From: a virus
Length of the DNA stretch: 64,000 nucleotides
Reading direction: 5' to 3' (one strand)
Virus record (IMG/VR): IMGVR_UViG_3300038760_000071
Location: 16,260 to 80,259 of that record
Shown: positions 36,378 through 62,952 of the stretch, in pieces
Layout: every line of letters starts with the position of its first letter
Numbering within the stretch: the stretch's first letter is position 1
Position numbers and translations under genes: made by a program
Notes under the pieces: generated by a model
Databases searched by the model: none
The model's input: only the letters and a program-made list of their open reading frames with translations
What the model was told of the DNA's origin: nothing

Positions 36378-36484
36378 GAGTATATTTAGTGTCTAAGGAA
36401 AGGAACTCTGATATAATAGGTAATAGGTGTTGAACTAGCGTGTATGCCCCTTAAACTACGATAAGGAACTCTTATATAATTAAC

Positions 36485-36670
36485 ATGAAGAAAAAATTTC
36501 CACGGAAACCGTTTGAGTATGGGAAGTATCTAGTTGAGTATAGCGAGGATACTGAGGATATTCTCAGATTTCTAAAGGAAAAGTTGGATACTATAGAGGA
36601 AGCAAGATCGGCAAGGGACAAGCTTGTCGTTGAAGGATATTACAAACCAAAAATTAAAAAAGTCGGATGA
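36485..36670 (+). CDS. Hypothetical early protein
   Basis: Starts at a junction motif. Confidence 0.6.
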   Translation: MKKKFPRKPFEYGKYLVEYSEDTEDILRFLKEKLDTIEEARSARDKLVVEGYYKPKIKKVG

Positions 36671-37152
36671 TTATACTAACACCATCACTAGCAATTCAGA
36701 AAGTAACAGGCATTGATTTCGATACTCTAAGTAATATAATTACTTTAGTACTGGAGAAAAATTTCGATAGAGCATTTTACTATCGTGTGAATATTCACAA
36801 ATCACGTGACGTAGAACTCTCATCTGTAATTTTACATATTAATCAGCATTACCAGAGAGATTTTAAGATGTTACTATCACCTTATGATCATTTAAAGTAT
36901 AATGAGAATCTGAAGCATAACATTGGTACAATTCTCCATGAGATTAGACATATCATACAGCACACCCTCTTCCGGTACAAGGTAACTGCAACATTTGAGA
37001 CAAACGCGGAATACCACAATTCTACAGAGGAGGTTGATGCTAGAAATTTTGAAAAGCTTACAACTGTTATAACGAATTCATATAAACTCCTAGCGGAGAA
37101 TGCGCGACAAATATTCGAGAAAAACAACTTAGGAACTCTGATACAATTATAG
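36667..37152 (+). CDS. Putative zinc metallopeptidase
   Basis: ILHEIRHIIQ (HExxH) and EEVDAR motifs. Confidence 0.65.
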   Translation: MIILTPSLAIQKVTGIDFDTLSNIITLVLEKNFDRAFYYRVNIHKSRDVELSSVILHINQHYQRDFKMLLSPYDHLKYNENLKHNIGTILHEIRHIIQHTLFRYKVTATFETNAEYHNSTEEVDARNFEKLTTVITNSYKLLAENARQIFEKNNLGTLIQL

Positions 37153-37202
37153 AGTAGATTAGATAAACATAAACAATACAACTATAAACACAAATATATA
37201 TC

Positions 37203-38030
37203 ATGGGATTTTTTAACCAAATTACATCATTAGACGATATTCCGCAATTCAATGTCAAGAAGGTCAGCTTGTTCGATTCTATGCAAAGAAAAATTCCTGA
37301 CACTTACTCCTTGCAGAGAACAGATGATCACACACATCTAGGAATCGTTAAGGATAAGTACGTGCCTATTCAGCTTGAAGAGATGGTTGACATTATCGGT
37401 CGCGCTTCAGATAAAGTAGGGGATATCAACCACATCGGTTACACTGTTTCACGAGGTGGTAGGAAAGTGTTAATTCAGTCTGAGTTGAAGGAAACCATTA
37501 ACGTTGATGATGATTTGATCAAACCACTCTTTTATACTGTTATTGATAATACCGGGGGTGGTGCAAACAAGACAATCCCATCAACTATTCGTATTGCTTG
37601 TGATAACGCGTTTCATCTAATCAAGCAGAGTGGGGATAATAGTAATAGAGCTTTTCACAACCATTTATTCACCGGGCGAGTTGATCTAATGGCAGATAAT
37701 ATCATTAGTTCAATTAAAACCGCGAGAAATTTTACTTCTATTATAGAAAATTTAAAGGGAGTTAAGTTCTCACGTGATGAGATGGTTAAACTCACACAAC
37801 GATTGATACCAGTCCAGGAAAATGAATCAGTAAAACGAATGCACAAACGTGAGAAACTAGTTTCTCTATACGAGAGTGGTCGTGGAAATGTTGGTGAAAC
37901 AAAGTGGGATGCATTGAATGCAATCACGGAATTTGAAACTCATACAGGTAGGAAATCTCCTGAAAAGCTCATTCGGAATTTAACTATGCCAACTCTTTCG
38001 AAAACCGGTATTGGTATGCTATTGGCATAG
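37203..38030 (+). CDS. DUF932/DUF945-family phage protein
   Basis: LGIV..KYVPIQ, IRIACDNA and TKWDALNAITEFETH motifs. Confidence 0.8.
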   Translation: MGFFNQITSLDDIPQFNVKKVSLFDSMQRKIPDTYSLQRTDDHTHLGIVKDKYVPIQLEEMVDIIGRASDKVGDINHIGYTVSRGGRKVLIQSELKETINVDDDLIKPLFYTVIDNTGGGANKTIPSTIRIACDNAFHLIKQSGDNSNRAFHNHLFTGRVDLMADNIISSIKTARNFTSIIENLKGVKFSRDEMVKLTQRLIPVQENESVKRMHKREKLVSLYESGRGNVGETKWDALNAITEFETHTGRKSPEKLIRNLTMPTLSKTGIGMLLA

Positions 38031-38268
38031 AATGAATAAACATAGAATGTTATTAGCCGACCCAGAAATTCCAGGAGAGGGAGCATGTATAGATATAACA
38101 TGGTATTCAAAAAAACGTGATATAGTAGTTGAAAAAATAGATATATATTTTATAATTAATTATATATTCGGTAATAGTGTAATTGATAATATAGATAATG
38201 TAAGTTACACAATGTTTCTGAATGCAGCACTTAACGAACTTGAAGAAAATAAAAATAAATTAACTTAA
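38011..38268 (+). CDS. Hypothetical protein
   Basis: ORF in a co-directional run. Confidence 0.4.
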   Translation: MVCYWHRMNKHRMLLADPEIPGEGACIDITWYSKKRDIVVEKIDIYFIINYIFGNSVIDNIDNVSYTMFLNAALNELEENKNKLT

Positions 38269-38466
38269 ATAAAAATAATGTACACAGGAAAAATTGGCGA
38301 TCTAGAATTCATTCTAGAAAAAGATAATAAATGTAGAATTTGTGTCTATAATAAAGGTAGTGTTGATCCAATAGCATATATCGAGGTTAGCTCAGCTATC
38401 ACTGAAAAATCTTTTCATTATGAGATTATGGATTTTGTAGCGAAACATACTAGCTGATACCCGGGT

Positions 38467-41691: not shown

Positions 41692-41756
41692 AGTTATTGG
41701 CTATTACATTGCATAATGTAATACTATATTATTTGGAACTTCAATATAATAGTAGT

Positions 41757-42158
41757 ATGGCTATTAACTTTAAGCGATTGGAGAAGATAACGAGAAGTCT
41801 TAAACCAATTTGCCAATCTGGCAAATCCTTTCACGCAACGTTTGTCTATAGAAAAAACAAGCTTGTATGTACCGCGTATAATAATTATAAAAAGCAACAC
41901 CCATATTATAAATTTGGTACTTACAAATCCACAAAACGGGGTAGTGTAAATTATATACCAGGTATACACTCAGAGGTAGCTGCATTACTAAAAATGGGTA
42001 GAGTAGACTGCTCAAATTTAACATTTATAAATGTTCGGATTGATAATTCGAATAATGTAGCGATCTCAAAGCCGTGTCCTAACTGTCAAAGACTGTTAGA
42101 TAGTATAGGTTATAAAAAAATATGGTATTATACTGGTAATAAATATATTTGCTGTTAA
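41757..42158 (+). CDS. Zn-dependent cytidine/dCMP-deaminase-fold protein
   Basis: HSEVAAL and SKPCPNC motifs; start reassigned to the ATG after a junction-motif variant. Confidence 0.75.
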   Translation: MAINFKRLEKITRSLKPICQSGKSFHATFVYRKNKLVCTAYNNYKKQHPYYKFGTYKSTKRGSVNYIPGIHSEVAALLKMGRVDCSNLTFINVRIDNSNNVAISKPCPNCQRLLDSIGYKKIWYYTGNKYICC

Positions 42159-42661: not shown

Positions 42662-43114
42662 ATGGTTAAATGTTATAATTTAACAATGACTAAATTATTA
42701 TATTTTACATTAATTGTAGTAATACTATATACAAACACAGGTTGTGTTGATACAGTATATGCTGCACCACCTGCATCTAACACGCGTGTAGTAAATGCTA
42801 GAATTACATATTACTGTGGCCGTGATAAGTGGGGATCCCGTGTAGCGTGTCCAAAGACGATAAGAGCAAATCGAGGGTTAACTGTAGCGGCACATCCCGA
42901 TTTTAAATTTGGACAGAAAATTTATATCCCAAAGCTCAAGAACATTATTGGGGATGGTTATTTCAATGTACAGGATAGGGGAAGCGCTGTTACGTCCCGG
43001 CTCGCATCAAAAGGTAAGGCATATGTGTTTGATGTATATGTTAGCTCGTATAATGAGCTAAAGCGGAATTCTCGTAAGCTGCCAATGTATATGGACGTGC
43101 ACATCTCTCGATAA
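42662..43114 (+). CDS. 3D-domain (MltA/Stationary-phase-survival-like) cell-wall hydrolase
   Basis: ITYY, TVAAHPDFKFG, VQDRGSAV and FDVYV motifs; N-terminal hydrophobic segment. Confidence 0.75.
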   Translation: MVKCYNLTMTKLLYFTLIVVILYTNTGCVDTVYAAPPASNTRVVNARITYYCGRDKWGSRVACPKTIRANRGLTVAAHPDFKFGQKIYIPKLKNIIGDGYFNVQDRGSAVTSRLASKGKAYVFDVYVSSYNELKRNSRKLPMYMDVHISR

Positions 43115-43137
43115 AGGAACTCTTATATAATAATAAT

Positions 43138-43383
43138 ATGACTTGTAAATGTGGTAGAAAAATTGAACAACCAAGGGTAGAATTTAGTTTGAAGAACTGT
43201 GCTGCATGCGCTCATGCGCAGCCTGATGTTCCCAAGCTTAAAGGTGTTTTAAGATATGCTCATAAGACAGGGGCCGAGATTCAAATTATGTCTGAAGAAT
43301 GTTTTAACTCGCAAAAAATATATTGGACCCCTCAGGGAGCTAGGAGCGCAGTTAAAAACTTCTCTAAGAATATTAGTTGCTAA
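43138..43383 (+). CDS. Zinc-finger protein
   Basis: CKCG...R...CAAC; starts at a junction motif. Confidence 0.6.
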   Translation: MTCKCGRKIEQPRVEFSLKNCAACAHAQPDVPKLKGVLRYAHKTGAEIQIMSEECFNSQKIYWTPQGARSAVKNFSKNISC

Positions 43384-44508: not shown

Positions 44509-45027
44509 ATGCAAGTATATTTTATTGCTGACCCTCATCTGGGTCATACAAATATTAATAAATTTAGATGGATAAATGAGCCCTTCACTAACGATGATCT
44601 TATTCTCCGTCACTGGCGCATGCTGCCTAAAAAGAGTCTAATATATGTTCTCGGGGATGTGGCGTTTAATGATAAATCTCTTTTACAGTTAGTCGACATG
44701 CCCGGTAGAAAAATTCTAATATCAGGCAACCATGATGATATGACATCACAGGGAGCGCAAAGAGAGGTTTTTGAGTCTGTATACGGGTTCTTAAGATATA
44801 AGGGAATGTGGGTGTCTCATGCCCCTGTTCATCCAGATACAATCCTACAGTCGCGATGCTTTGTAAATATTCATGGACATACTCATAAAGATGAGCCGAG
44901 TTCTGATCTCTATTTCTCTGTGGATCCTGAGGTTCTAATGAGCAAAGGATTGAAACCGTTTGTGACTCTTGAGAAAATGCAGGAGCATATAAAGGGGTAT
45001 ATACCAAATACACAAAAGGAACTTTGA
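44509..45027 (+). CDS. Calcineurin-like metallophosphoesterase
   Basis: ADPHLGH, LGDVA, GNHD, SHAP and IHGHTH motifs; stop lies within a junction motif. Confidence 0.9.
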   Translation: MQVYFIADPHLGHTNINKFRWINEPFTNDDLILRHWRMLPKKSLIYVLGDVAFNDKSLLQLVDMPGRKILISGNHDDMTSQGAQREVFESVYGFLRYKGMWVSHAPVHPDTILQSRCFVNIHGHTHKDEPSSDLYFSVDPEVLMSKGLKPFVTLEKMQEHIKGYIPNTQKEL

Positions 45028-45040
45028 TATAATATAGGAG

Positions 45041-45223
45041 ATGAGAGTACAACTAACTAAAGAAGAAAAGGATTATGCAATCCGTAACAATATCTCGTTT
45101 GCAGATATGAGTGATTTCGTCTCAGATAAAGTTATGGAAGATGAAGTTATGAGATCTTGGGAAATTATTAAAAATCGAGATGCATTCGATTATAGCTATA
45201 CACAATTCTTCCCACGCAAGTAA
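45041..45223 (+). CDS. Hypothetical early protein
   Basis: Starts at a junction motif. Confidence 0.55.
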   Translation: MRVQLTKEEKDYAIRNNISFADMSDFVSDKVMEDEVMRSWEIIKNRDAFDYSYTQFFPRK

Positions 45224-45284
45224 CATCGTAGGAAGGAACTCTGTTATAATAAAGAGTAGAAAGAAACCTTAACACATATAACCT

Positions 45285-45647: not shown

Positions 45648-45715
45648 GCGAGTGAATCTCAAAAGGAAATCTGATATAATAATAGAGTAGAAAGAAACAT
45701 TAACAACCTTATAGA

Positions 45716-46621: not shown

Positions 46622-46782
46622 TCAATAACCTATAGTAACTCCTATATAATAATATTATGAACAACCGAGATCGTTTACTATTTTTAGTTGAATTTCTAAT
46701 TACTTGTACTATTATATATGGTGTTATATATATTATGTATGGTGTTATAGCAACCGGCTTGAAGCCTTAATATAATAATAGA

Positions 46783-47944: not shown

Positions 47945-47980
47945 GTGTAGATAACAAAGGAACTCTGATATAATAATAGT

Positions 47981-48208
47981 ATGATCACCTCATGTAAGCG
48001 ATACAGAACCAAAGTTGAATTCTGTAATAGAGTAGATGCGGTATGTGCATATTTTAACACACAGCAGGAAGCGGTTGATCATCTGCACGCGTGGTCAGAT
48101 AAACAAAAAGGTTATTCCGTTGAGCATATTGAAATAACTACCGTTAATGGTAACTCTTCAAGGCTAGTTTCGGAGTGGTGGAATCGTGATTGCTGCCCGG
48201 GACATTGA
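47981..48208 (+). CDS. Hypothetical early protein
   Basis: Starts at a canonical junction motif. Confidence 0.6.
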   Translation: MITSCKRYRTKVEFCNRVDAVCAYFNTQQEAVDHLHAWSDKQKGYSVEHIEITTVNGNSSRLVSEWWNRDCCPGH

Positions 48209-48428: not shown

Positions 48429-48431
48429 AAA

Positions 48432-49379: not shown

Positions 49380-49603
49380 GGAGACTCATGACAGCACACC
49401 ATAGGCAACAACTACTATTTAGTAATATTTTTCAAGTAGCTAGCAATATAAACGAAATAGTAGCTGGTAGTTTTTCCGGTCACCTCATTTGGTCTGAGAT
49501 TTATAACAACACTACTGATTTAATACCTAGTAGGCTCGTCTCAAACCGGGGTGAAGCGTTTAATATAACACAACCTGAAAGGGAACTCCTATATAATATA
49601 TAT

Positions 49604-49876
49604 ATGAGCGTCGTCGGTTGGATAATCAAATGGACATGTGGGTTAGTGTTGCTGATAACCACTCTCATCTGGATAACAGGCTGGTTAATTTTGATCTGGG
49701 CCACCATCGGCTTGAATCCCATAGAAGTGCGTCCGGATAACTCCCAACCTATACAACACTCTGTAGAGTATAATGCAGAGGTAGAGATAATATCCCCTGT
49801 TATTGTAGGTGCACCTAAGAAAAGCAAAGTATCAAACATTTACAACAACCCTAAACTACCACCAAGAAAGAACTAA
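49604..49876 (+). CDS. Membrane protein
   Basis: ATG after a junction-motif variant; hydrophobic Trp-rich segment. Confidence 0.5.
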   Translation: MSVVGWIIKWTCGLVLLITTLIWITGWLILIWATIGLNPIEVRPDNSQPIQHSVEYNAEVEIISPVIVGAPKKSKVSNIYNNPKLPPRKN

Positions 49877-50255: not shown

Positions 50256-50494
50256 AAGTAGGGAACATATATAATACAGATATGAAAGTAGGTGATATAT
50301 CTTATGAGATACGTAATAAAATGCAGGGCGAAGTGGGGTTTGAGTTGTGGGATAAGGTATTGTGCGAGGTAGGAGATGATGTATGGGATGAGGTCTGGCA
50401 AGAGGTCTGGCATGAGGTGGGGCGATCGGTGAGGTTTGGGCTAAAGGATGTGATAGATTATAATGTAGGGAACTCTAGCATAATAAGGTTATGA
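50252..50494 (+). CDS. Trp/Val tetrad-repeat microprotein
   Basis: DDVWDEVWQEVWHEV. Confidence 0.65.
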   Translation: MKVGNIYNTDMKVGDISYEIRNKMQGEVGFELWDKVLCEVGDDVWDEVWQEVWHEVGRSVRFGLKDVIDYNVGNSSIIRL

Positions 50495-50681: not shown

Positions 50682-50852
50682 ATGAATTTAACTAGTATAT
50701 GGTGTGAGGTAGAGGATGAGGTAGAGGATGGGGTAGAGGAAGAGGTATGGCGTGAGGCATGGCGCGCGGTGGAGCATAAGGTATGGTATGAGGCCACTCA
50801 TGAGATGAGAAGTACGGTAAGAGATAGGGTAAGGAACTCTGATATAATATAG
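50682..50852 (+). pseudogene. Disrupted tetrad-repeat microprotein copy
   Basis: ATGAATTTAACTAG start like its paralogs, but the frame stops early; repeat units continue to the next motif. Confidence 0.5.
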
Positions 50853-50884
50853 ATATGGAATGAGGTAGAAGATGCTGTATAGAT

Positions 50885-51105: not shown

Positions 51106-51330
51106 ATGAGTATGGGAATAGATATGAATTTAGCTGGAGTAAGGAGAGAGTTGGTGGCCAAAGTAAGGCATGAGTTGCGGGGTGAGATAAGGAGTATGGT
51201 GAAGGATGAGGTATGGGGTGAGGTAAGAGATAACATATGGAGTGGGGTAGAGAACGAGATATGGAATGAGGTAAGGCGTAATGTATGGAACAGGGCATGG
51301 AATGAGGTGAGGAGCTCTAATATAATATAG
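51106..51330 (+). CDS. Trp/Val tetrad-repeat microprotein
   Basis: Likely start at MNL (51124); ends RSSNII within the motif. Confidence 0.65.
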   Translation: MSMGIDMNLAGVRRELVAKVRHELRGEIRSMVKDEVWGEVRDNIWSGVENEIWNEVRRNVWNRAWNEVRSSNII

Positions 51331-51332
51331 AT

Positions 51333-51527
51333 ATGAGAGTAGATCAGATATCGTATGAGCTGTGTAGTAAAATGCAGGTAGAGTTAGGGGCTAAGTTATG
51401 GGATAAAGTATTGAGTAGGGTAGAAGATGCTGTATGGAGTGAGGTATGGGTTAAGGTAGAAGATGCTGTATGGGGTGAGGTTTGGGATAAGGTAGAGCGT
51501 AAGGTAAGGAACTCTAATATAATATAG
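51333..51527 (+). CDS. Trp/Val tetrad-repeat microprotein
   Basis: N-terminus paralogous to the 50282 copy; ends RNSNII. Confidence 0.7.
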   Translation: MRVDQISYELCSKMQVELGAKLWDKVLSRVEDAVWSEVWVKVEDAVWGEVWDKVERKVRNSNII

Positions 51528-51529
51528 AT

Positions 51530-51880
51530 ATGAATTTGAATGAGATACAGTGTAAGGTGGAGGATAAGGTATGGGATGAGATCTGGGATAAGGTATGGGA
51601 TGAGATCTGGGATGAGGTAAGGGGTGAGGTAGGGGATAAGGTATGGGGTGAGATATGGGATGAAGTATGGGGTGAGGTAGAGGTTAAGGTAAGGGATGAA
51701 GTATGGGATGAAGTATGGGATGAAGTATGGGATGGGGTATATGATATCATCTGGGGTGAGGTATATGATAACATATTGAATGAGATATGGGATAAGGTAA
51801 GGTGGGGAGTAGAAGATAAGGTAAGGGGTGAGGTATTTGATAAGGTAGGGCGTAAGATAAGGAACTCTAATATAATATAG
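51530..51880 (+). CDS. Trp/Val tetrad-repeat microprotein (longest copy)
   Basis: (V/I)W(D/G)(E/K) units; ends RNSNII. Confidence 0.7.
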   Translation: MNLNEIQCKVEDKVWDEIWDKVWDEIWDEVRGEVGDKVWGEIWDEVWGEVEVKVRDEVWDEVWDEVWDGVYDIIWGEVYDNILNEIWDKVRWGVEDKVRGEVFDKVGRKIRNSNII

Positions 51881-51882
51881 AT

Positions 51883-52119
51883 ATGAATAAGGTATGGGAT
51901 AAGGTAGGGGATGAGATGGAGGATAAGATAAGGGATAAGGTAAGGGATGAGGTATGGGGTGAGGTAGAGCGTAAGGTATGGGGTGAGGTAAGGGATAAGG
52001 TAAGGTATAAAGTAAGGGATGAGGTATGGGGTGAGATAAAGTGTAAAGTATTTAATAAGGTAGAAGATGCTGTATGGGGTGAGATATGGGATGAGGTAAG
52101 GAACTCTGATATAATATAG
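51883..52119 (+). CDS. Trp/Val tetrad-repeat microprotein
   Basis: Ends RNSDII. Confidence 0.7.
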   Translation: MNKVWDKVGDEMEDKIRDKVRDEVWGEVERKVWGEVRDKVRYKVRDEVWGEIKCKVFNKVEDAVWGEIWDEVRNSDII

Positions 52120-52121
52120 AT

Positions 52122-52319
52122 ATGAATTTGAATACGAAGATAGGGTATAAGATATGGAATGAGGTAAGGCGTAATGTATGGAACAGGGCATGGAATGAGG
52201 TATGGTACGAGGTAAGGGATGAGGTAAGAGAAGAAGTATGGGGTAAGGTAAGGTATGAGGTAGGGGGTGAGGTAGGGGGTAAGGTAGAGCGTAAGATAAG
52301 GAACTCTGATATAATGTAG
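52122..52319 (+). CDS. Trp/Val tetrad-repeat microprotein
   Basis: Ends RNSDIM; shares a ~50-nt block with the 51106 copy. Confidence 0.7.
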   Translation: MNLNTKIGYKIWNEVRRNVWNRAWNEVWYEVRDEVREEVWGKVRYEVGGEVGGKVERKIRNSDIM

Positions 52320-52321
52320 AT

Positions 52322-52471
52322 ATGAATTTGAATGAGGTAGGGAGTGAGGTATGGGGTGAGGTAGAGCGTAAGGTAAGGGATAAGGTAGAAGATGCTGTAT
52401 GGGGTGAGATATGGGATAAGGTAAGGGATAAGGTAAGGTATAAGATAGGTAACACTGATATATCGATATAA
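52322..52471 (+). CDS. Trp/Val tetrad-repeat microprotein (49 aa)
   Basis: MNLNEVGSEVWGEVERKVRDKV...; below the ORF-track cutoff. Confidence 0.6.
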   Translation: MNLNEVGSEVWGEVERKVRDKVEDAVWGEIWDKVRDKVRYKIGNTDISI

Positions 52472-52673: not shown

Positions 52674-53354
52674 ATGAAAAAATATGTAAGAAGATACCCG
52701 ACAAAATACCGATATAATCAAATGGGATTATCGAAAGAGACAGGCTATTTTAAATACGTGGATGTTAATATATGTGCTGGATGCGCGGTAGCGAGCGCGT
52801 GTCAATCTCTATTAGATGTGCGTGGATACAATGCAATAGGTGACTATGCTCTAGGAATATATGAGCGCGCGAAGAAAGCGATCGGATCTCAGAGAACCGG
52901 TCTTCGAATATATCCCGCAGTGACTGAAGCAATATATACATTCAATGAAGAGAAGCGATATATAGATATTACAGCTACTAAGTTGGCGCCGCGAAGTAAG
53001 TCTCTGAGAGATCATCTACTCAATAATGGCACCGCGGTCGCTGGATTCCGATGGTATGAAGGTATGATGTATCCTACACCTATTATCCCACCAAATACTC
53101 CATGGTATCGTCGTATATGGTACCATCTCAGAGCCCCACGATATGCATCAGCCTCCGGAGACATTGCAGGTTATCATGCAGCAGCCGTGATGGGTGTAGA
53201 TGATCATAAGCAAGCATTTGTAATACAGAACTCATACGGGTTAGGCTACGGTAATAAAGGCAATGTCTATATGAAGTATGATGACTTCGACGCATCATGC
53301 GTCCAAGCTTATGGTTTTGACACTGTGGAGGAAAGAAAAGGAACTCTGATATAA
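52674..53354 (+). CDS. Papain-like (C1) cysteine peptidase
   Basis: CAGCAVA, YHAAAVMG and IQNSYG catalytic motifs; TATAAATA upstream; ends KGTLI within the motif. Confidence 0.8.
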   Translation: MKKYVRRYPTKYRYNQMGLSKETGYFKYVDVNICAGCAVASACQSLLDVRGYNAIGDYALGIYERAKKAIGSQRTGLRIYPAVTEAIYTFNEEKRYIDITATKLAPRSKSLRDHLLNNGTAVAGFRWYEGMMYPTPIIPPNTPWYRRIWYHLRAPRYASASGDIAGYHAAAVMGVDDHKQAFVIQNSYGLGYGNKGNVYMKYDDFDASCVQAYGFDTVEERKGTLI

Positions 53355-53361
53355 TATAGAT

Positions 53362-54039
53362 ATGATGAAACAGAAAGCTCCGATACTAAGCGCGGTTACC
53401 GCGCCGCGGCGATGGGTGACGAGGAATAATCTCAAACTAAATATGAATCGTCTAGCAGTGTTGTTGTTTTTTGCAACATTCGCTAACCAGTGGTCGATCG
53501 GTCAATCAGTTAAACTGGCTTGGGACGCTAGCGAAGATGAACGTGTAACAAGCTACCAAGTGAGGTATGGCACTTCAAGTAGCGTCCATCCATCGATGGT
53601 CGACGTGGGGAAAAACACCACAGCAACCATTACGGGCTTATCCTTCAGTGTTGATTACTACTTTGTGGTGTATGCTCTCACCGCTTCAGGCCTGATAAGC
53701 CTACCGTCTAACGAAGTCTATACCATCGTAGAGCCGCCGCCTTCATCGCGCGCCTATATAGGCTATCATATACGGATTCAGACGTCAGGGGAGTTTGAAC
53801 TCCAGCAGTCTGTAGACATGGTTAACTGGATTACGGTAAAGCAGGCAAGTGACTATTTGGATATAGTGATTCCAACCTCAGGTGTACACCGATCCTTTTA
53901 CCGAGTCACGCCATGGAACGGAGAAACTCTCTTCGAAGGTAGGTCATTTTACATTAACCAAACTAACTCGAGTGTAGACGATCATAAGCAAGCATTTGTA
54001 ATTCAGAACTCATACGGCTTCGACACAAAGGAACTCTGA
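53362..54039 (+). CDS. Secreted fibronectin type III domain protein
   Basis: VKLAWDAS...YQVRYGT...TITGL...YYFVVYA...SLPSNEV. Confidence 0.8.
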   Translation: MMKQKAPILSAVTAPRRWVTRNNLKLNMNRLAVLLFFATFANQWSIGQSVKLAWDASEDERVTSYQVRYGTSSSVHPSMVDVGKNTTATITGLSFSVDYYFVVYALTASGLISLPSNEVYTIVEPPPSSRAYIGYHIRIQTSGEFELQQSVDMVNWITVKQASDYLDIVIPTSGVHRSFYRVTPWNGETLFEGRSFYINQTNSSVDDHKQAFVIQNSYGFDTKEL

Positions 54040-54051
54040 TATAATATAGAT

Positions 54052-54384
54052 ATGAAAGCAACCGGTGCACGTTTTAAAGTACGGCATAAATTATGGAATA
54101 GGGTCAGGGGATCGATACAGAGTGGTGTGTGGGAAGAGGTAAAGAAGGCCGTCCAGGACCTGGTACATAATAGAATACCGAACAAGGTTCAGAACAAGGT
54201 ACAGAATAAAGGCCATAATGAGATATATCATGATGTAGAAGATGATGTATGGAATAAGGTATATAAGAGGGTAGAAGATAAGGTATGGAATAATGTATGG
54301 AATAAGCTACATAATACTGGAATAGCCTCAACGAAAAAGGCACTCAAAAGGAACTCTGATATAATAGATATACAGAAGAGATAA
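54052..54384 (+). CDS. Tetrad-repeat protein (outlying paralog)
   Basis: DDVWNKVYKRVEDKVWNNVWNKL. Confidence 0.6.
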   Translation: MKATGARFKVRHKLWNRVRGSIQSGVWEEVKKAVQDLVHNRIPNKVQNKVQNKGHNEIYHDVEDDVWNKVYKRVEDKVWNNVWNKLHNTGIASTKKALKRNSDIIDIQKR

Positions 54385-55352: not shown

Positions 55353-55640
55353 ATGGATAGCGAACTCGAACTGTGCTACAAGTCAACAACATTCTGTGAT
55401 GGTAATGGAGGTAGGTGTCTAAAGTTTAAAACATGCCCGCTAGCGCTAACAGATGATGTGCGTCAGAAAGCTGACCGCTGGTGGGTGGCTAATGGTGATT
55501 CTATAGATGAAGATGTTCCTTTAGCAATTTTTAATGCTCCGCGGAAGTTGGATTGTTATGAGCCGCCTATTAAAGTGCCGGTGCCGGCACCATCCGATGA
55601 AGCTGATGACTCGAACACTGAGAAAGGAACTCTCATATAA
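55353..55640 (+). CDS. Cys-rich hypothetical protein
   Basis: TAAATA upstream; ends KGTLI within the motif. Confidence 0.55.
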   Translation: MDSELELCYKSTTFCDGNGGRCLKFKTCPLALTDDVRQKADRWWVANGDSIDEDVPLAIFNAPRKLDCYEPPIKVPVPAPSDEADDSNTEKGTLI

Positions 55641-55676
55641 TAAGAGAGTAGAAACAATACTAACCAGATACAAGAG

Positions 55677-56645
55677 ATGAAAAAGATTACTAAAATGACC
55701 GAGGAGGAGCATGCGAAAATGCCTGAGTATGTAGAGAAGTGGATCAAGATCGGGACTGATACTACCCGGCTGGATCCAGCTACCACGGAGAAGATTGTTA
55801 ATAACATTCGAAACCTGATTGATATGGAGCCGGGTGTACCGTGTTTGATTGTCGATAACCCTATTGAGGCTTGGGTAATGTCATACCTATCTCTTAAGCA
55901 AGGTGTGGCTATAGAGGATTTACATTCTGAGATGGTAAGTATCTTTAATGGTAACCCGAAGAAGTACGACGTCCCACGATGTGAACTTCCATGGATGACT
56001 GGATCGTTCTTTGCCTCTACGTTTGCCTTTTACGACTTTATGATTGAAGAGCTTGGTGTAGAGTTAGAGAAAGAGCTCTGGACAAAGTATAAGATATGGG
56101 AAGCTTCGTCCTGTCTTGGGTGTGTATATCCTCTAGATAGTTGTACGATCGTTAGTCAAAAGCCTAAGACCGTCTTCCTACAAGATGGCAAGCTTCATAA
56201 GGACGGTGAGCCAGCTCTAACATATGATGGTTTAGGTGAGTTAGTGATCTGGTCGTTAAATGGTGTTGAGGTACCGGAGTGGCTCGCTAAGACGTCCGCG
56301 CAGGATCTTACACTAGATGATTATAGCAAACTAGATAACGCGGACGTTAAAGCTGAGTTCGTACGTAAGGTTGGTATTGAGCGCTTTATTGATCAGGGTA
56401 AGATAGTCGATTCATTCAACGAGTATGATATTGCTACTCATGAGTGGTGGCACAAGTCTGAGTACGAGCTCGTAGATATGAACTCGTTGTTTAGTACATT
56501 AGACTACGCACCATATCTTAAGATGGTTAATCAGACAACTGGCATTTTCCATATGGAGGGTGTGTCGCCATCATGTCGAACAGTTGGTGAAGCTCTTAAA
56601 GAGCGCTTCGGTGGTAAGGATTTCGTTATCAACTCAATCGCCTAA
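55677..56645 (+). CDS. DUF6745-like protein
   Basis: W...G...AFYDF, CVYPLD...VSQKP...GKLHKDGEPAL.Y...WSLNGVEVP and NADVK..IGIERF motifs. Confidence 0.7.
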   Translation: MKKITKMTEEEHAKMPEYVEKWIKIGTDTTRLDPATTEKIVNNIRNLIDMEPGVPCLIVDNPIEAWVMSYLSLKQGVAIEDLHSEMVSIFNGNPKKYDVPRCELPWMTGSFFASTFAFYDFMIEELGVELEKELWTKYKIWEASSCLGCVYPLDSCTIVSQKPKTVFLQDGKLHKDGEPALTYDGLGELVIWSLNGVEVPEWLAKTSAQDLTLDDYSKLDNADVKAEFVRKVGIERFIDQGKIVDSFNEYDIATHEWWHKSEYELVDMNSLFSTLDYAPYLKMVNQTTGIFHMEGVSPSCRTVGEALKERFGGKDFVINSIA

Positions 56646-56669
56646 AAGGAACTCTGATATAATAATAGT

Positions 56670-56903
56670 ATGACGCAATTAACTATAGACCATGACATTA
56701 CTACTCTCAATAAGCTGCAGCTCGAGCAGTTAGTTGTGAGCTTCCAACAACTCGCCACTGAAGGGTCGGTGGGTATGGTCGAGGAGGGTATTATTCTCCC
56801 AGAGCAAGCTAATATGGTTAGTAACTACTTAGTAGAAGCTATCAATATCGCTGCGCTCGAGCTGCGACGTGATGCTCTAATCGACGCTCTTAATCGCGAT
56901 TAG
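56670..56903 (+). CDS. Hypothetical early protein
   Basis: Starts at a junction motif. Confidence 0.6.
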   Translation: MTQLTIDHDITTLNKLQLEQLVVSFQQLATEGSVGMVEEGIILPEQANMVSNYLVEAINIAALELRRDALIDALNRD

Positions 56904-56973: not shown

Positions 56974-57049
<76 letters not shown>

Positions 57050-57458: not shown

Positions 57459-57469
57459 TTATAATTTAT

Positions 57470-57658
57470 ATGAAAATTAACTTAGAGCAGGACGAAATTG
57501 ACTTTATTACAGAGTGTATCGAAACACGAATCGTTAACGATGCATCGCGTACAGATGTACCTATAGAGTATATTAATATTATCGAGTCATGGAGGGCTGA
57601 GGGGCAGATGATCTTAGCTAAGCTTGAGAGATGTGAAGACAGTAAAAAGGAACATTGA
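57470..57658 (+). CDS. Hypothetical protein
   Basis: Stop supplied by a motif variant (KEH*). Confidence 0.55.
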   Translation: MKINLEQDEIDFITECIETRIVNDASRTDVPIEYINIIESWRAEGQMILAKLERCEDSKKEH

Positions 57659-57670
57659 TATAATATTGGT

Positions 57671-58030
57671 ATGAAGACATATAGCAATTTAGGAGATCCA
57701 AATGTAGTCGTTATTAACATTACTATTTTGGAGGTATATAAACACCTCGCGGCAGCTCTATTCGATATGGGGGTTGACGGCGGAGGAAGCCTCTTCGGCA
57801 AACATCTAGCAGAATGTTATGAGGGACTTAAGTCGCTACCAGATCTAGAGAACGAGGAGTTGACCGAGGCTAGCGAAAAAGCGAGAGGGCGCGTTCGTAA
57901 GTTGTTTACTGATGGTAATACAATGCTAATGATTCCCAATTGGGATGAGTCGTGTAAAACAGAGCTTCGTATTACTAATTCAAAAGGAGTTTCAGTGTTA
58001 GTATTAGTAGATGGAGAACTTAATTGTTAA
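57671..58030 (+). CDS. Hypothetical early protein
   Basis: Starts at a junction motif. Confidence 0.6.
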   Translation: MKTYSNLGDPNVVVINITILEVYKHLAAALFDMGVDGGGSLFGKHLAECYEGLKSLPDLENEELTEASEKARGRVRKLFTDGNTMLMIPNWDESCKTELRITNSKGVSVLVLVDGELNC

Positions 58031-58322: not shown

Positions 58323-58350
58323 GGAAAAGGAAACCTGATATAATATTATT

Positions 58351-58512
58351 ATGGAAGAAATTAAAAAAGAATTGTTTGATAAGATGAGTTATGATGTTAG
58401 TAATGGATTTGGAAGGAAGGAGTTGAAGGAATGGTATGGAGAGGAGAATGTTAAGTTGTATTTAGAATATGGGAAGAAGAAGGATTTGTTTGAAGGTGAG
58501 TTGGAGGGGTAG
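58351..58512 (+). CDS. 53-aa early protein encoded without any cytosine
   Basis: MEEIKKELFDKMSYDVSNGFGRKELKEWYGEENVKLYLEYGKKKDLFEGELEG; starts at a junction motif. Confidence 0.7.
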   Translation: MEEIKKELFDKMSYDVSNGFGRKELKEWYGEENVKLYLEYGKKKDLFEGELEG

Positions 58513-58544
58513 GTTTTAAAAAGGAAATCTGATATAATAATAGT

Positions 58545-58811
58545 ATGCAAGTAATTAATAAAGAAAGTAAGATGAAAGAAGTAGTTGTTGTTGGATATGA
58601 GGAGATTGGATTCGAGTTTAGTTTATGTGATGAGTTATATGAAGATGGGTGTGGAAAAGATATTGAAGGTAGGTTTTTAGATGTAGAATTTTTAAAGATT
58701 ATGTTTGACAGTAGGTTGGAGAATGAAGAGGATACATCTAAAATTGATAAGATTGATGATATGTTAGTAAGTATTAAGGATTTGAATAATGAAGTGTTAG
58801 TTGAGTTTTAA
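58545..58811 (+). CDS. Acidic early protein, C-depleted gene
   Basis: Starts at a junction motif; 5 C in 267 nt by manual count. Confidence 0.7.
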   Translation: MQVINKESKMKEVVVVGYEEIGFEFSLCDELYEDGCGKDIEGRFLDVEFLKIMFDSRLENEEDTSKIDKIDDMLVSIKDLNNEVLVEF

Positions 58812-58891
58812 TAAGTAAGGGGGAGGAGTTCCGAAAGGAACGAACCGGGGGGAGTTAGTTAAAAAGGAAACCTGATATAATAAATAATAGT

Positions 58892-59092
58892 ATGAAAGTA
58901 ATTAATAAAGAAAGTAAGATGAAGAGAGAAGAAGTTGTTAAGTTGGTTGAAGATTGTAATAAGAAGTTGAGAGAGTTGCGTAAGTTGTATATGAATGATT
59001 TTTTAGATGATGAAGGAGATGAGATTGTTGAGAACTTTTTTTATGAAGTGAGGGATTTGGTTGAGGAGGATTGGGCTTCAGAGGATTATTAG
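58892..59092 (+). CDS. Acidic early protein, C-depleted gene; paralog of 63144-63389
   Basis: 4 C in 201 nt by manual count; DCNKKLRELRKLYMNDFLDDEGD. Confidence 0.7.
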   Translation: MKVINKESKMKREEVVKLVEDCNKKLRELRKLYMNDFLDDEGDEIVENFFYEVRDLVEEDWASEDY

Positions 59093-59124
59093 GTTTTAAA
59101 AAGGAAACCTGATATAATAATAGT

Positions 59125-59403
59125 ATGAACAAATTAACATATAAGACACCAACAGCAAGAGACGTTAAAGTAGCATTCACCGCACTTGGGCATGATGTTA
59201 CAGATGCGCGCACCTTTAATGATCCTCGGAAATTCGGACGCCGAATCAAGCTTACAACAACTGTAGCATCAGCTGATCTAAACAATGTATCTGAGCTGCT
59301 AGTGAAGATGTTTCCAACATATAAATTTAATGTGAGTGAGTGTACCAATGCAGGATTAAGTTGCTATAACTACACCTCAGTACAGTGCCTTTTAACCAAG
59401 TAG
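59125..59403 (+). CDS. Hypothetical early protein
   Basis: Starts at a junction motif. Confidence 0.6.
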   Translation: MNKLTYKTPTARDVKVAFTALGHDVTDARTFNDPRKFGRRIKLTTTVASADLNNVSELLVKMFPTYKFNVSECTNAGLSCYNYTSVQCLLTK

Positions 59404-59435
59404 GACAAAACCAAAACAAACAAACAAACAAACAT

Positions 59436-59645: not shown

Positions 59646-59751
59646 GGTAAGACGTCCTGAGCATGACATAAAACTGCTCCGTGTATAGCCCGGACGCACG
59701 TTAAAGATACCCGGGCACACTTTTAAATTGGAAATCTGATATAATAATAGT

Positions 59752-60003
59752 ATGAGCGATATAAACGAGTTAGTTGAGTTATTTGAAGATGCAGTGTATG
59801 AAAGACCATCAGAAAGAGATAGTGTATGTGAAGTTACTACTGCAATAGGGTATAGTTGTTTAGAGCACTTCCTAGATGATAATCCAGGCGCATGCGAGAA
59901 GATTCTGGAATTTATCACTGATCATTGCAAACTCTATGTTGAGTCGAACGCAGATGAGCCAGCATTCAAAGAGTTTGTAGGTGATGGTGAAGAGAGATAT
60001 TAA
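59752..60003 (+). CDS. Hypothetical acidic early protein
   Basis: Junction motif at start; LEHFLDDNPGACEKILEFI. Confidence 0.65.
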   Translation: MSDINELVELFEDAVYERPSERDSVCEVTTAIGYSCLEHFLDDNPGACEKILEFITDHCKLYVESNADEPAFKEFVGDGEERY

Positions 60004-60025
60004 GGAACTCTGATATAATATTAGT

Positions 60026-60205
60026 ATGAGCAAATTACAAAACGACATGTATCAACGAATTGATGGGCTAGTAAATATCAAATTGGTCGACGAATTTATC
60101 GACCAATTTGCGGCGATCTGCACTGATGTACAGAATGAAGAGCCATTTGAAACTGCAGATGTTATCAAATATCTCACAGCAAGGATGCAAGAAACGGAAC
60201 TCTGA
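60026..60205 (+). CDS. Hypothetical early protein (59 aa)
   Basis: Starts at one junction motif and stops in the next (TEL*). Confidence 0.6.
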   Translation: MSKLQNDMYQRIDGLVNIKLVDEFIDQFAAICTDVQNEEPFETADVIKYLTARMQETEL

Positions 60206-60217
60206 TATAATAATAAT

Positions 60218-60523
60218 ATGAAGATGATCAAATTAGGTAAATTTAAATTAGTGTTTGGCCAAATTGGCAATTGCATTACTAACATCCTCCACGTGAAGCT
60301 GCACAAGCTCATGGCTGGTAAGAAGACTGTTAAGGTTGGATGGCGTGGTAGTGATTGGGATGAGCTCGATGCTAGTATTACACTCAACAAGTGGTACGTA
60401 CCGATCAGCGCTACCTGGAATTCAACAAAACTAGCCAAGCGATTTGGCACACCATTTGAAGCTCCGTTCGGCACGTATCATGTCTGGGACTCAAAACTTC
60501 TCGGAGAACATATCGAACTCTAA
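60218..60523 (+). CDS. Hypothetical early protein
   Basis: Starts at a junction motif. Confidence 0.55.
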   Translation: MKMIKLGKFKLVFGQIGNCITNILHVKLHKLMAGKKTVKVGWRGSDWDELDASITLNKWYVPISATWNSTKLAKRFGTPFEAPFGTYHVWDSKLLGEHIEL

Positions 60524-60543
60524 ACCACAACACATACAACATA

Positions 60544-60858: not shown

Positions 60859-61097
60859 CCGGGAGCAACCAACCACACCTCCCCATACTCGTTTTGCTTA
60901 TAGCATTAATGAACTTGGTACTTAGCGCAGCGAATGGAGTTATTGGCGTTTGGTATTCATCTAGCGCGTTGGTAATGGCAACACATATATGTATGTCATT
61001 TATTGGGCTAGGCGGAGTAGCTCTATGCACCTATGCAATTCTTAAGAAGTAAATAAGCGAGCTCAAAAATCAAAAGGAACTCTGATATAATATTAAT

Positions 61098-61274
61098 ATG
61101 AAGATACCAGCATATGAACAAGCAGAAATTGTTAAGCGTCTAGACGCTGATCCGCGATTGAAACGTCTAGTACAGGAGGCGACTGAGAGATGTGGTCACG
61201 AGTTAGGACTAGATGATGTTGTAGATATTCAGAATAGGTTCGAACAACGCTCCCTGATCATGATCAACCAATAG
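61098..61274 (+). CDS. Hypothetical early protein (58 aa)
   Basis: MKIPAYEQAEIV...; starts at a junction motif. Confidence 0.55.
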   Translation: MKIPAYEQAEIVKRLDADPRLKRLVQEATERCGHELGLDDVVDIQNRFEQRSLIMINQ

Positions 61275-61298
61275 AAGGAAACCTGATATAATAATAGT

Positions 61299-61520
61299 AT
61301 GCAGGAAGACAAATTAGAAGTTGGGTGTGAAGTGTTAACATCAGATGGTACCATTCATAGTATTGTATCAGTAGAATTTGGTGAAGCATGGGCTGAGTGG
61401 AAGAATGATGTAAGGCCATACTGGGAGATAGAATGGCCTTATACAGTAGGAATAGTTGGAAGTCCAGAAGTGGTAGCAGTAACTTGGCCACTCCGGAGCC
61501 CAGTATCACGAATCAAATAA
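61299..61520 (+). CDS. Hypothetical early protein
   Basis: Starts at a junction motif. Confidence 0.6.
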   Translation: MQEDKLEVGCEVLTSDGTIHSIVSVEFGEAWAEWKNDVRPYWEIEWPYTVGIVGSPEVVAVTWPLRSPVSRIK

Positions 61521-61563
61521 AATGCCACTAGTATTATAATATGGGAAAATTAAAAACTAACGG

Positions 61564-62466
61564 ATGAGGGTGATATCATCGAAGGAAGAAGCATCTAAAT
61601 ATGGCGCTCTAGATGATCCAGTAAAGATGTATTTCAAGCAGATGGGTAAAGCTCCTCTGCTGAACCGAGAGCAGGAGATTGAGATATCTAAGCGCATCGA
61701 GACAGCAGAGAGTAAGGCCATCATGATGAACGACAGCCCCGAGCGTCATCAGCATTGGATGCAGGAAGCGCAACGAGCCAAGACTGAGATGGTTGAAGCG
61801 AATCTCCGGTTGGTGATCTCCATTGCCAAGAAGTATATGAATCGTGGTCTACCGTTCCTCGATTTGATCCAGGAAGGTAACCTAGGGTTGATGAAGGCTG
61901 TGCGCAAGTTTGAGTATCGCCGCGGGTACAAATTCTCAACCTACGCCACGTGGTGGATTCGTCAGGCGATCACTAGCTCAATTGCCGACCAGTCAAGAAC
62001 GATTCGTATACCGATGCACGTGCTAGAGCTGATTAACAAACTTAGGCGCGTGGAGAAGCAGCTCGTACAGGAGTATGGTTACGAGCCAACCACTGAAGAG
62101 ATTGCTGCAGAGGTTCATCTACCAGTTGGGCGTGTACGTTCTGTCATGACAATGGCTCAACAGACCATCTCCCTTGAAGCACCCGTTGGTGGGAGTACTA
62201 CCACGTTTGGTGATTTCATTGAAGGTCATGCCGCTGAAGAGTCGGCAGAAGAGAATAGCTTATCACACCTCCATGATACAGTCCAACATGTGCTGAACAC
62301 TCTGACAGAGCGTGAGCGCGAGATCATAGTTCTTCGCTCCGGGTTGATCGATGGTCGCAGCTCCACCCTCGAGGAGGTAGGGAGACAATTTCAAGTCACG
62401 CGTGAGCGCATTCGTCAAATCGAAGCGAAGGCTCTCCGGAAGATGCGCGCGGTTATGCCACGCTAG
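61564..62466 (+). CDS. rpoD: RpoD-like group 1/2 sigma-70 factor
   Basis: [12 protein letters not shown] (region 1.2), [43 protein letters not shown] (region 2), [24 protein letters not shown] (region 4.2). Confidence 0.93.
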
Positions 62467-62494
62467 CAAAAAGGAAATCTGATATAATAATAGT

Positions 62495-62704
62495 ATGACG
62501 GAAGACAAATTAGCTCGATTGGTTAAAGAATATTTCAACGATGAACTCGAATGTGCCAAGGCAATGGCCAAGGACGAGGAGAAGGTCATTACCGATGATG
62601 CAAACTTCAAGCGAGATATCTATATAGATGCGATTGAAATGCTCATCGCTGACATCGATTCGATCCAACGCTGTGAAGAAGATTTCGAATATGTAACTAG
62701 CTAG
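62495..62704 (+). CDS. Hypothetical acidic early protein
   Basis: Starts at a junction motif. Confidence 0.6.
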   Translation: MTEDKLARLVKEYFNDELECAKAMAKDEEKVITDDANFKRDIYIDAIEMLIADIDSIQRCEEDFEYVTS

Positions 62705-62727
62705 AGGAACTCTGATATAATAATAGT

Positions 62728-62952
62728 ATGACCGATAAAGAAAAGAAGACACGTTTCATCTTAACACGCCGCCCAGAGTTGCTAGCTAAGATGACCAAAG
62801 AACAGCTCATCGCAGCACGTGAGCATGTACAAGAGATGGACAGTACAGCACTGTGGGAGTGTTGGGCAACACATTTCAAACCTCTGTATGAACATAAAGT
62901 AACTGGCGCACGTTTGTCCAGACCTATTGCAGACAAACGTACTAGTCTCTAA
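62728..62952 (+). CDS. Hypothetical early protein
   Basis: Starts at the last junction motif. Confidence 0.6.
   Translation: MTDKEKKTRFILTRRPELLAKMTKEQLIAAREHVQEMDSTALWECWATHFKPLYEHKVTGARLSRPIADKRTSL

Follow-up and report, generated by a model that had tools for sequence, protein, structure and literature searches.

A repeated predicted early promoter joined to start codons in the gene-cassette array of a marine T4-like phage

The locus described here raises the question of why one short DNA motif is found again and again at the junctions between small genes of a phage. It belongs to IMG/VR record IMGVR_UViG_3300038760_000071, which has a length of 80,259 bp and a CheckV completeness of 38%. 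The window that was analyzed comprises bases 16260-80259 of this record (64,000 nt), and all coordinates given are window positions. Copies of a motif of about 28 bp recur in this window every 200-1500 bp in one orientation, heading small genes. The initial annotation had viewed each junction as a unit of stop in any frame, promoter and start, and the whole array as an integron-like platform for gene capture and shuffling. Our analysis leads to a different description. The repeat is likely to be the early promoter of a phage clade fused to the start codon, and the units of promoter plus gene are likely to be shuffled by recombination at the repeats.

The source phage is an uncultured, marine, distantly T4-like myovirus. 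A T4-like sheath, a baseplate wedge and a large terminase in pieces are present among its genes, and its DNA turns up in seawater and marine metagenomes; none of the listed sequencing runs that contain it is recorded as RNA. The best matches among isolates, found in pelagiphage HTVC008M, cyanophages and coliphages, have a protein identity of merely 35-43%. No match was obtained when 24 kb of the array was compared by megablast with the isolated-phage collection, and a 37-nt motif query against isolated phages gave single chance matches only. The array is therefore present in no isolated phage of this collection.

Anatomy of the motif and its position at gene starts

The 17-mer GGAACTCTGATATAATA, with up to three mismatches allowed, has 35 matches in the window, all on the + strand between 36402 and 62722. 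The number expected from shuffled sequences is 0.45, and no shuffle reached 35, which confirms the array of about 35 copies noticed at first. No further copies were found in the remaining 16 kb of the record. The information in the aligned copies is confined to positions -3 to +24 relative to the first G, or about 28 bp. This block reads AAA GGAAC TCT GATATAATA wwrGT ATG, with the four to five bases before TATG loosely conserved. The initial annotation had noted an extended -10 element, a GGAA(C/A) box and the next ATG joined in one motif, and this is borne out by the alignment.

In terms of promoter structure, the block contains a GGAAC box at -22 to -18 and an extended -10 element, TGnTATAAT, at -15 to -7, without a -35 element. 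T is found at -15 in 32 of the 35 copies and G at -14 in 25, and the hexamer TATAAT is invariant or nearly so. Across 212 sites of the clade described below, the G of TG drops to 59%, so that TG appears to be helpful but not required. The 45 bases upstream of the copies, which include the expected -35 site, hold no information in the alignment. A scan with the canonical -35/-10 consensus found 65 sites against 63.7 expected and did not pick up the motif. With these elements the motif corresponds to an extended -10 sigma-70 promoter, and it is a predicted promoter.

The start codon is located at offset +22 in 26 of the 35 copies, and each of these opens an open reading frame (ORF) of at least 37 amino acid residues. 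Counted from the last T of TATAAT, the A of this ATG is the seventh base, and a T stands directly before it. The sigma-70 -10 hexamer spans positions -12 to -7. From this geometry and the fixed spacing, the A of the ATG is the predicted +1, and the mRNAs should therefore be leaderless. The motif-led start codons are ATG. Throughout the record, TATAAT-N6-ATG occurs 28 times, and no other spacing occurs more than four times. The core TAAATA of T4 late promoters has a similarly narrow distribution, with N5-ATG 18 times, N6-ATG six times, and at most four occurrences at other spacings. The two promoter classes segregate, the early motif with small ORFans of the + strand and the late box with structural genes.

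GGAG or AGGA at Shine-Dalgarno distance is almost absent from the 25 nt before about 90 ORFs. When the same analysis was applied to HTVC008M, AAGGAG was found before most genes and both spacing peaks were absent. T4 itself mostly uses Shine-Dalgarno leaders, and T4-type phages are the textbook case of promoter, leader and Shine-Dalgarno sequence. In the phage studied here, transcripts from the motif copies probably start at the AUG and are translated leaderless, without a Shine-Dalgarno sequence. The window also contains two ordinary -35/-10 promoters, TTTACA-17-TATAAT (44474-44511) and TTGAAC-16-TATAAT (54389-54425). Their ATG likewise begins at the seventh base after the -10 element, and the leaderless rule would thus hold without the GGAAC box.

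Both the start site and the leaderless translation are predictions from promoter geometry, and it weighs against them that nine copies do not have the ATG at +22. In three copies the ATG is found at +20, +23 or +26, and four others carry a conserved leader instead. These four are followed by an A-rich leader resembling ATAGAGTAGAAAGAAAC, which is 29 nt long in two of them, and they serve larger conserved genes, coding for a DUF932 protein, a RecA-fold ATPase and a 322-residue protein. The same leadered class (ATAGAGTAA...) was found in the related contig G002. The conserved leader may be a translational leader that acts independently of Shine-Dalgarno pairing.

A fixed distance between box and start codon might also arise at the level of RNA. 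The motif would then be a signal for translation initiation or reinitiation, or a processing site, within long polycistronic early transcripts, and the AU-rich box 5-6 nt before the AUG would replace the Shine-Dalgarno sequence. The boxes TATAATA and TAAATA do sit at the Shine-Dalgarno position, 5-6 nt before the ATG, and there are no terminators between the cassettes. The Shine-Dalgarno sequence is lacking even before genes with neither box, so that some internal initiation independent of it must exist. However, the boxes are letter-perfect to TGnTATAAT and to the T4 late box (TATAAATA), and they segregate with early and late genes. The spacing is fixed to one nucleotide, with the T(-1)A(+1) pair typical of transcription start sites, whereas the spacing of ribosome sites is normally loose. 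In addition, an invariant GGAAC lies 18-22 nt upstream, is not complementary to the anti-Shine-Dalgarno sequence, and is not bridged to the AUG by any conserved hairpin. An RNA signal of this kind is considered quite unlikely.

The stop codons within the motif can be understood from the predicted leaderless promoter. Each copy would fire a transcript that starts with AUG. With no 5' untranslated region and almost no intergenic space, the promoter would sit in or just after the 3' end of the preceding gene. The AT-rich promoter contains stop triplets, and for this reason many upstream ORFs would end inside it; the stops would be a by-product and not a device. An upstream ORF of at least 35 codons does end inside the motif in 14 of the 35 copies. 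TGA at +7 terminates the ORFs ending at 45027, 54039, 57658 and 60205, TAA at +12 those ending at 53354 and 55640, and TAG at +17 those ending at 51527, 51880 and 52119, among others. The protein endings KGTLI, KEL-type and RNS(D/N)II listed in the initial annotation are therefore real. One paralogue family accounts for six of the 14 overlapping stops, and these six hence reflect a single origin. In the tetrad-repeat paralogues, the promoter motif of the following gene supplies both the C-terminal RNS(D/N)II and the stop.

The claim of a stop in any frame as a designed feature fared less well. All three frames are closed in only 9 of the 35 copies, mainly the ATATAG variant and mostly in one paralogue family, and two frames are closed in 21. 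Shuffled sequences of the same composition have three frames closed in 13% and two in 56% of cases, and the late-promoter regions of the same phage have three frames closed in 4 of 18. The closure of frames in the motif is explained as an effect of base composition.

Conservation in related phages, the GGAAC box and the host

Related contigs (G001-G004, G006, G007, G009 and G010) were found by an exact-match scan of IMG/VR, followed by scans of whole records. These and the TARA Oceans contig L205, nine in all, keep the pattern GGAAC-N5-TATAAT-N6-ATG, which is thus conserved across ten contigs including the window's own record. One-directional arrays of 33, 19, 25, 9, 22 and 11 sites occur in G001, G002, G003, G004, G007 and G009, respectively. 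The complete genome G006 (221 kb) has 50 sites in the parts fetched, and the complete genome G010 (184.5 kb, with terminal repeats) has 12. The ATG is located at +22 in 26/33 sites of G001, 8/9 of G004, 31/50 of G006, 12/12 of G010 and 9/11 of G009, and the single-nucleotide peak of ATG spacing holds across the clade. In the 212 sites, the five bases from GGAAC to TATAAT and the bases from TATAATA to ATG vary freely, and T(-1), A(+1) and the following T and G are retained in 72-80%.

The IMG/VR relatives align to the window in a few short patches only, with 65-86% identity, and 13 of the 73 + strand ORFs of the array have a protein homologue in related contigs. The conservation of the motif despite so sparse and divergent a DNA match indicates that it is kept by function and not by recent copying. 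In G006 the motif heads genes of two divergent early regions, on both strands. It is therefore the general early promoter of a whole phage clade and not a device peculiar to this array.

The GGAAC box has a possible counterpart in the Z-element, a sequence at -22 to -18 which is contacted by the beta' zipper of core RNA polymerase and replaces the -35 element when the -10 is strong (PMC3173786). Known examples are AACCT in the T7 A1 promoter and AACAT in A2 (Yuzenkova et al. 2011, PMC3173786). Like these -10/Z promoters, the motif has a 5-bp box at -22 to -18, located 5 bp from a consensus -10, and no -35. The difference is that the Z consensus AACCT/AACAT is loose, whereas GGAAC is invariant, and a phage or host factor may read it instead. 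The box is only loosely similar to AACCT and AACAT. GGAAC-N5-TANAAT has low counts in five Verrucomicrobiota genomes and is not clearly enriched there (5 versus 2, 5 versus 0, 1 versus 1, 1 versus 2, and 1 versus 1). Given these counts, GGAAC may need a phage factor as its reader.

Such a factor would define a transcription class private to the phage, in which GGAAC is read by the sigma factor encoded at 61564-62466, by a MotA-like activator, or by a phage RNA polymerase, and not by the unmodified host holoenzyme. Host promoters do not usually have a conserved stretch of 25 contiguous bases with a box at -20, and a sigma factor with regions 1.2, 2, 3 and 4 is encoded inside the array itself. 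The low counts in Verrucomicrobiota point in the same direction. However, the sigma factor is absent from the complete relative G006 and is represented in G010 by a weak match of 159 residues only, although both use the GGAAC promoter. Since G006 uses the same promoter without the sigma factor, the promoter does not depend on it. In addition, the reader of early genes has to be there when infection begins, and the sigma gene itself stands behind a GGAAC copy. A T7-type RNA polymerase domain (PF00940) was not found in G000, G006, G007 and G010, which is weak evidence since the control genomes also gave nothing. A -10/Z promoter, recognized by the core beta' zipper with the host sigma factor, would explain the box without any new factor. 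We regard a phage-specific reader as rather improbable.

Two other roles of the box were considered and rejected. As a -35 element of the extracytoplasmic function type, GGAAC is placed 5 bp and not 16-17 bp from the -10, and with a -10 located 16 nt downstream, transcription would begin within the gene. A Shine-Dalgarno-like box that a hairpin moves close to the AUG, the arrangement of T4 gene 38, does not fit either, since the intervening bases vary uncompensated and GGAAC is not a Shine-Dalgarno sequence.

The sigma factor of the array also gives information about the host. It is 72-76% identical to RpoD of metagenome-assembled genomes of Verrucomicrobiota and at most 57% identical to that of most other phyla; two further sigma proteins on record are 99% and 88% identical to it. 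The similarity to Verrucomicrobiota points to a verrucomicrobial host, and the host is probably a member of the Verrucomicrobiota. A T4-core myovirus found in a single cell of marine Verrucomicrobia (PMC4611503) fits this assignment. It also fits that about 10% of the mapped transcription start sites in Akkermansia are leaderless (PMC4782308). Leaderless genes with a -10 box about 7 nt before the start codon are known from Deinococcus (PMC4007540) and mycobacteria (PMC4633059). The leaderless genes of Deinococcus, mycobacteria and Akkermansia likewise have a TATAAT-type box at a fixed short distance, no Shine-Dalgarno sequence, and an ATG start. In contrast to these bacteria, the arrangement described here applies to most genes of a T4-like phage and comprises two classes, early (GGAAC/TATAAT) and late (TAAATA).

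A more general proposal can be made only tentatively, and we hold it to be possible but doubtful in its full extent. A clade of abundant marine T4-like phages, probably living on Verrucomicrobiota, would express nearly all of its genes, early and late, from leaderless transcripts. The early genes would use a natural -10/Z-type promoter, with GGAAC read by the core beta' zipper in place of a -35 element. A unit of 30-40 bp, promoter plus AUG, would serve at once as a module of transcription, of translation and of gene-shuffling recombination. If this is true, leaderless translation can account for nearly all expression in a large virulent phage, which would inform on the ribosomes of its uncultured host. 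The GGAAC promoters would add a large number of natural candidates to the -10/Z class, whose evidence so far comes from a few engineered templates. For annotation, gene starts in these phages would be callable from the motif.

Rearrangements between related phages

The relatives G001-G004, with 65-86% identity in short patches, and L112 and L113, with 41% protein identity, are too distant to map breakpoints. L205, a contig from TARA Oceans, is 85-96% identical to 54347-63922, and its junctions were compared letter by letter. The three cassettes of 58354-59098 are replaced in L205 by two unrelated ones. On the left, homology breaks off right behind TATAATA in copy 58329, and on the right it begins again at AAAAGGAAAC in copy 59103. 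The cassettes 60218-61047 and 61098-61274 are found in reversed order, with three of the junctions inside motif copies. Both swapped cassettes begin with ATGAAGAT, which results in 35-40 bp of identity across the crossover. L205 also contains an extra motif-led cassette, which extends from a gene tail on the left to the AAAGGAAC edge of copy 55626 on the right. It is without 57490-57643, and this gap ends at the 5' edge of copy 57649. The segment 61299-61520 is replaced together with the first codons of the sigma gene, which differ in L205.

Contigs of four marine metagenome runs were compared with 44001-64000 of the window. In a contig of run X5, the sequence 59100-59746 joins 60022, and exactly the gene cassette 59752-60003 is lacking. 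Both ends of this loss are located in motif copies (59730 and 60004), and the event is precise from motif to motif. The two copies share an exact run of just 11 bases in the 17-mer core. This run is too short for the join to be an assembly artefact at k=31. Other metagenome joints lie at or near a copy (47957, 49570, 57644, 57684 and 60040), and others lie away from copies (45331/45551, 49156/49308, 49659/49836 and 55435/55539). Several joints within the tetrad-repeat region at 50.9-52.0 kb were left out of account as alignments to other copies of the motif or of paralogues, and so were 51523>58560 and 55575>58519.

The motif footprint, which makes up 6.9% of the DNA, contains 7 of 15 endpoints in L205, and 10 of 29 once the metagenome events are included. 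The enrichment has P of about 1e-5; when all gene starts are given the same likelihood, P is about 0.001-0.002. The initial annotation had looked to relatives for cassette gain and loss with breakpoints in the motif. Such breakpoints are found in the L205 swap and replacement and in the X5 loss, which end inside copies, and the endpoints as a whole are not unrelated to the motif.

Several observations nevertheless weigh against a role of the motif in these events. About half of the breakpoints are off the motif. They include an internal deletion in L205 (57689-57992) that is unrelated to it, the indels 49157-49307 and 55435-55539, and the cassette 63103-63522. This cassette is flanked by different direct repeats of about 25 nt (GCTCCACA..ATTTTTTTCGCG, at 63083-63545), and it is absent from L205, where two copies of this repeat stand side by side. 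Moreover, selection for intact genes alone would gather the surviving breakpoints at gene borders. A 49-nt segment in the 3' part of the peptidase-like gene 52674-53354 (53194-53242) is found as a 94% identical copy at the 3' end of the next gene, 53362-54039 (53972-54020). This chimeric tail is the trace of a rearrangement in which the motif was not involved.

These observations could mean that the motif has no part in recombination, and that illegitimate or microhomology events occur anywhere, with survival only of those that keep genes and promoters intact, so that breakpoints would seem to accumulate at the promoter-start units. The endpoints outside the motif, the duplicated gene tail and the cassette with its different repeat are in favor of this, as is the fall of the enrichment when all gene starts are allowed. 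On the other hand, in the replacement, the swap and the X5 loss, the homology on both sides breaks off within the repeat itself and not just in the vicinity of a gene border. Past the motif, the swapped cassettes have ATGAAGAT in common, and thereby the long identity across the crossover, and the same process has been shown experimentally for the repeats of other T4-type phages discussed below. An array without any such role of the motif is therefore thought unlikely. Judged from the compared sequences, exchange at the motif is real, yet it is not the sole route of change.

For exchange at the motif, the promoter together with the first codons would form repeats of 30-40 bp, which could act as patches of homology for the general recombination of the phage. 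Homologous recombination would then be the cause of the rearrangements. Its outcome would be the loss, replacement and reordering of promoter-plus-gene units between related phages.

This process resembles that of the promoter-early stem-loops (PeSLs), which are known in the T4-type phages RB49/phi1, T4/PST and KVP40/nt-1 (Arbiol et al. 2010, PMC2839356; Comeau et al. 2014, PMC4122927). In both cases, a strong early promoter is repeated before small ORFans in a T4-like hyperplastic region, and relatives differ by indels, replacements and reordering with exchange inside the repeat and without an integrase. The differences lie in the structure of the repeat. PeSLs have a stem-loop terminator, whereas none is present here and the motif has no -35 but a GGAAC box. 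Terminator-like sites number 9 against 10.6 expected, and the 45-nt stretches upstream of the copies have the same folding energy as random 45-mers (P = 0.30). The promoter of the motif also abuts the ATG, so that the unit carries the start codon, and often the first codons, without a ribosome-binding leader. It seems best to describe the element as a probably leaderless form of the PeSL cassette system that lacks the stem-loop and uses a -10 plus GGAAC early promoter specific to the clade; it is not an integron. If so, the comparison with L205 extends shuffling of the PeSL type to a distant marine branch. The stem-loop would be dispensable, and a repeat of promoter plus start would suffice to swap small genes without breaking their expression.

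The integron-like platform suggested at first has to be considered in its strict form. A dedicated recombinase, namely the RecA-fold ATPase or the DUF932 protein, would use the motif as an attachment site for circular cassettes, and the three-frame stop, the promoter and the start would form a docking unit by design. The replacement, the order swap and the precise loss end inside the motif, all copies have one orientation, and PeSL mini-circles have been shown in RB49/phi1 (PMC2839356). With integrons, the array shares a one-directional row of short, unrelated single-gene cassettes at a repeated site, with gain, loss and reordering. However, integrons have intI, attI, attC hairpins and a common Pc, whereas the repeat here is non-palindromic, with no inverted repeat, attC-like structure or enrichment of upstream hairpins, and each cassette has its own promoter. 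Among those array proteins that were compared with Pfam and PHROGs, none has a domain of an integrase, such as intI, or of another site-specific recombinase; the record covers 38% of the genome.

Nothing links the ATPase (called RadA-like in the initial annotation) or the DUF932 protein to the rearrangements; the former has a match only to DnaB/KaiC-like P-loop proteins and the latter has no assigned activity. In addition, the motif is found before early genes on both strands throughout the two complete genomes of relatives, as a general promoter would be, half of the breakpoints are elsewhere, and three-frame stops occur in 9 of the 35 copies, in line with composition. A dedicated capture platform is thus very improbable. 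What stands of the integron-like proposal is shuffling at the motif without an integrase. No defining part of an integron is present, and the analogy itself, together with the absence of an integrase, had already been published by the authors who described PeSLs (PMC2839356).

Features of the array and neighboring genes

The copies of the motif are collected in Table 1 together with the sigma gene.

Table 1. Motif copies of the array and the sigma factor gene (each row is a + strand motif copy unless said otherwise)
Feature	Position	Strand	Details
Copy 1	36399..36426	+	TAG, no ATG, at +22; 63 nt before copy 2
Motif copy	36462..36489	+	ATG at +20; ORF 36485-36670
Leadered copy (ATAGAGTAG...)	37129..37156	+	Leader region 37149-37175; DUF932 gene 37203-38030; upstream ORF ends inside (TAG)
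Motif copy	41732..41759	+	ATG at +22; ORF 41757-42158, dCMP-deaminase-like
Motif copy	43113..43140	+	ATG at +22; ORF 43138-43383
Motif copy	45015..45043	+	ATG at +23; ORF 45041-45223; upstream ORF 44509-45027 ends inside (TGA)
Leadered copy (AGAGTAGAAAGAAAC leader)	45232..45259	+	Leader region 45252-45280
Leadered copy	45662..45689	+	29-nt A-rich leader (region 45682-45715); RecA-fold ATPase gene 45716-46621
Motif copy, GTAAC variant	46632..46659	+	ATG at +22; ORF 46657-46770
Motif copy	47956..47983	+	ATG at +22; ORF 47981-48208
Motif copy	49579..49606	+	ATG at +22; ORF 49604-49876
Motif copy, weakened -10 (GCATAAT)	50466..50493	+	ATG at +22; ORF 50491-50679, tetrad-repeat family
Motif copy and scar of a collapsed cassette	50830..50884	+	Followed by 2-codon ORF, gene remnant and partial second motif end (TATAGATATG); real ORF 50885-51073
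Five motif copies (51311, 51508, 51861, 52100, 52300)	51308..52324	+	All with ATG at +22; head tandem tetrad-repeat paralogues
Motif copy	53337..53364	+	ATG at +22; ORF 53362-54039 (fn3 domain); upstream peptidase-like ORF ends inside (TAA)
Motif copy	54027..54054	+	ATG at +22; ORF 54052-54384; upstream ORF ends inside (TGA)
Motif copy inside ORF 54052-54384	54347..54374	+	Read as RNSDII; no ATG at +22
Leadered copy	55623..55650	+	29-nt leader (region 55643-55676); gene 55677-56645; extra cassette of L205 ends at its 5' edge
Motif copy	56645..56672	+	ATG at +22; ORF 56670-56903; tRNA-Met and tRNA-Arg downstream
Motif copy	57646..57673	+	ATG at +22; ORF 57671-58030; indel 57490-57643 ends at its 5' edge
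Motif copy	58326..58353	+	ATG at +22; left end of L205 cassette replacement
Motif copy	58520..58547	+	ATG at +22; ORF 58545-58811
Motif copy	58863..58894	+	ATG at +26; ORF 58892-59092
Motif copy	59100..59127	+	ATG at +22; right end of L205 cassette replacement
Motif copy	59727..59754	+	ATG at +22; ORF 59752-60003; left end of X5 loss (59746/60022)
Motif copy	60001..60028	+	ATG at +22; ORF 60026-60205; right end of X5 loss
Motif copy	60193..60220	+	ATG at +22; genes 60218-61052; L205 order-swap junction
Motif copy	61073..61100	+	ATG at +22; ORF 61098-61274; order-swap junction
Motif copy	61274..61301	+	ATG at +22; ORF 61299-61520, then sigma gene; order-swap junction
RpoD-like sigma gene (not a motif copy)	61564-62466	+	300 residues; regions 1.2, 2, 3 and 4, no region 1.1; within array
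Motif copy	62470..62497	+	ATG at +22; ORF 62495-62704
Last motif copy	62703..62730	+	ATG at +22; ORF 62728-62952

The tetrad-repeat family consists of about 12 tandem paralogues of 49-116 residues on the + strand (50067-52471 and 54052-54384), built from 12-nt units that encode (V/I)-W-(D/G)-(E/K). The GC skew of this region reaches 0.64, and a long spurious ORF (51514-52455) is found on the - strand. Copy number and junctions of the family vary in the metagenome contigs, and homologous repeats are present in G003.

The cassette 63103-63522 holds the gene 63144-63389, which has a late-type TATAAATA box before its ATG and is a paralogue of 58913-59071. Outside the motif-led ORFs, the large terminase is split over several ORFs on the - strand (21773-27478), with endonuclease-like and DnaB-type helicase-like matches between the pieces. 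Auxiliary genes at 33498-35900, 39559-40227 and 43606-44241 code for RmlD-like and GDP-mannose-4,6-dehydratase-like sugar-nucleotide enzymes, a Stf0-type sulfotransferase and ThyX. Four tRNA genes are scattered through the early array: Gly-GCC (40587-40661), Gly-UCC (54781-54854), Met-CAU (56974-57049) and Arg-UCU (57385-57458). The tRNA-Met region is the best-conserved DNA common to the window, G002 and G003.

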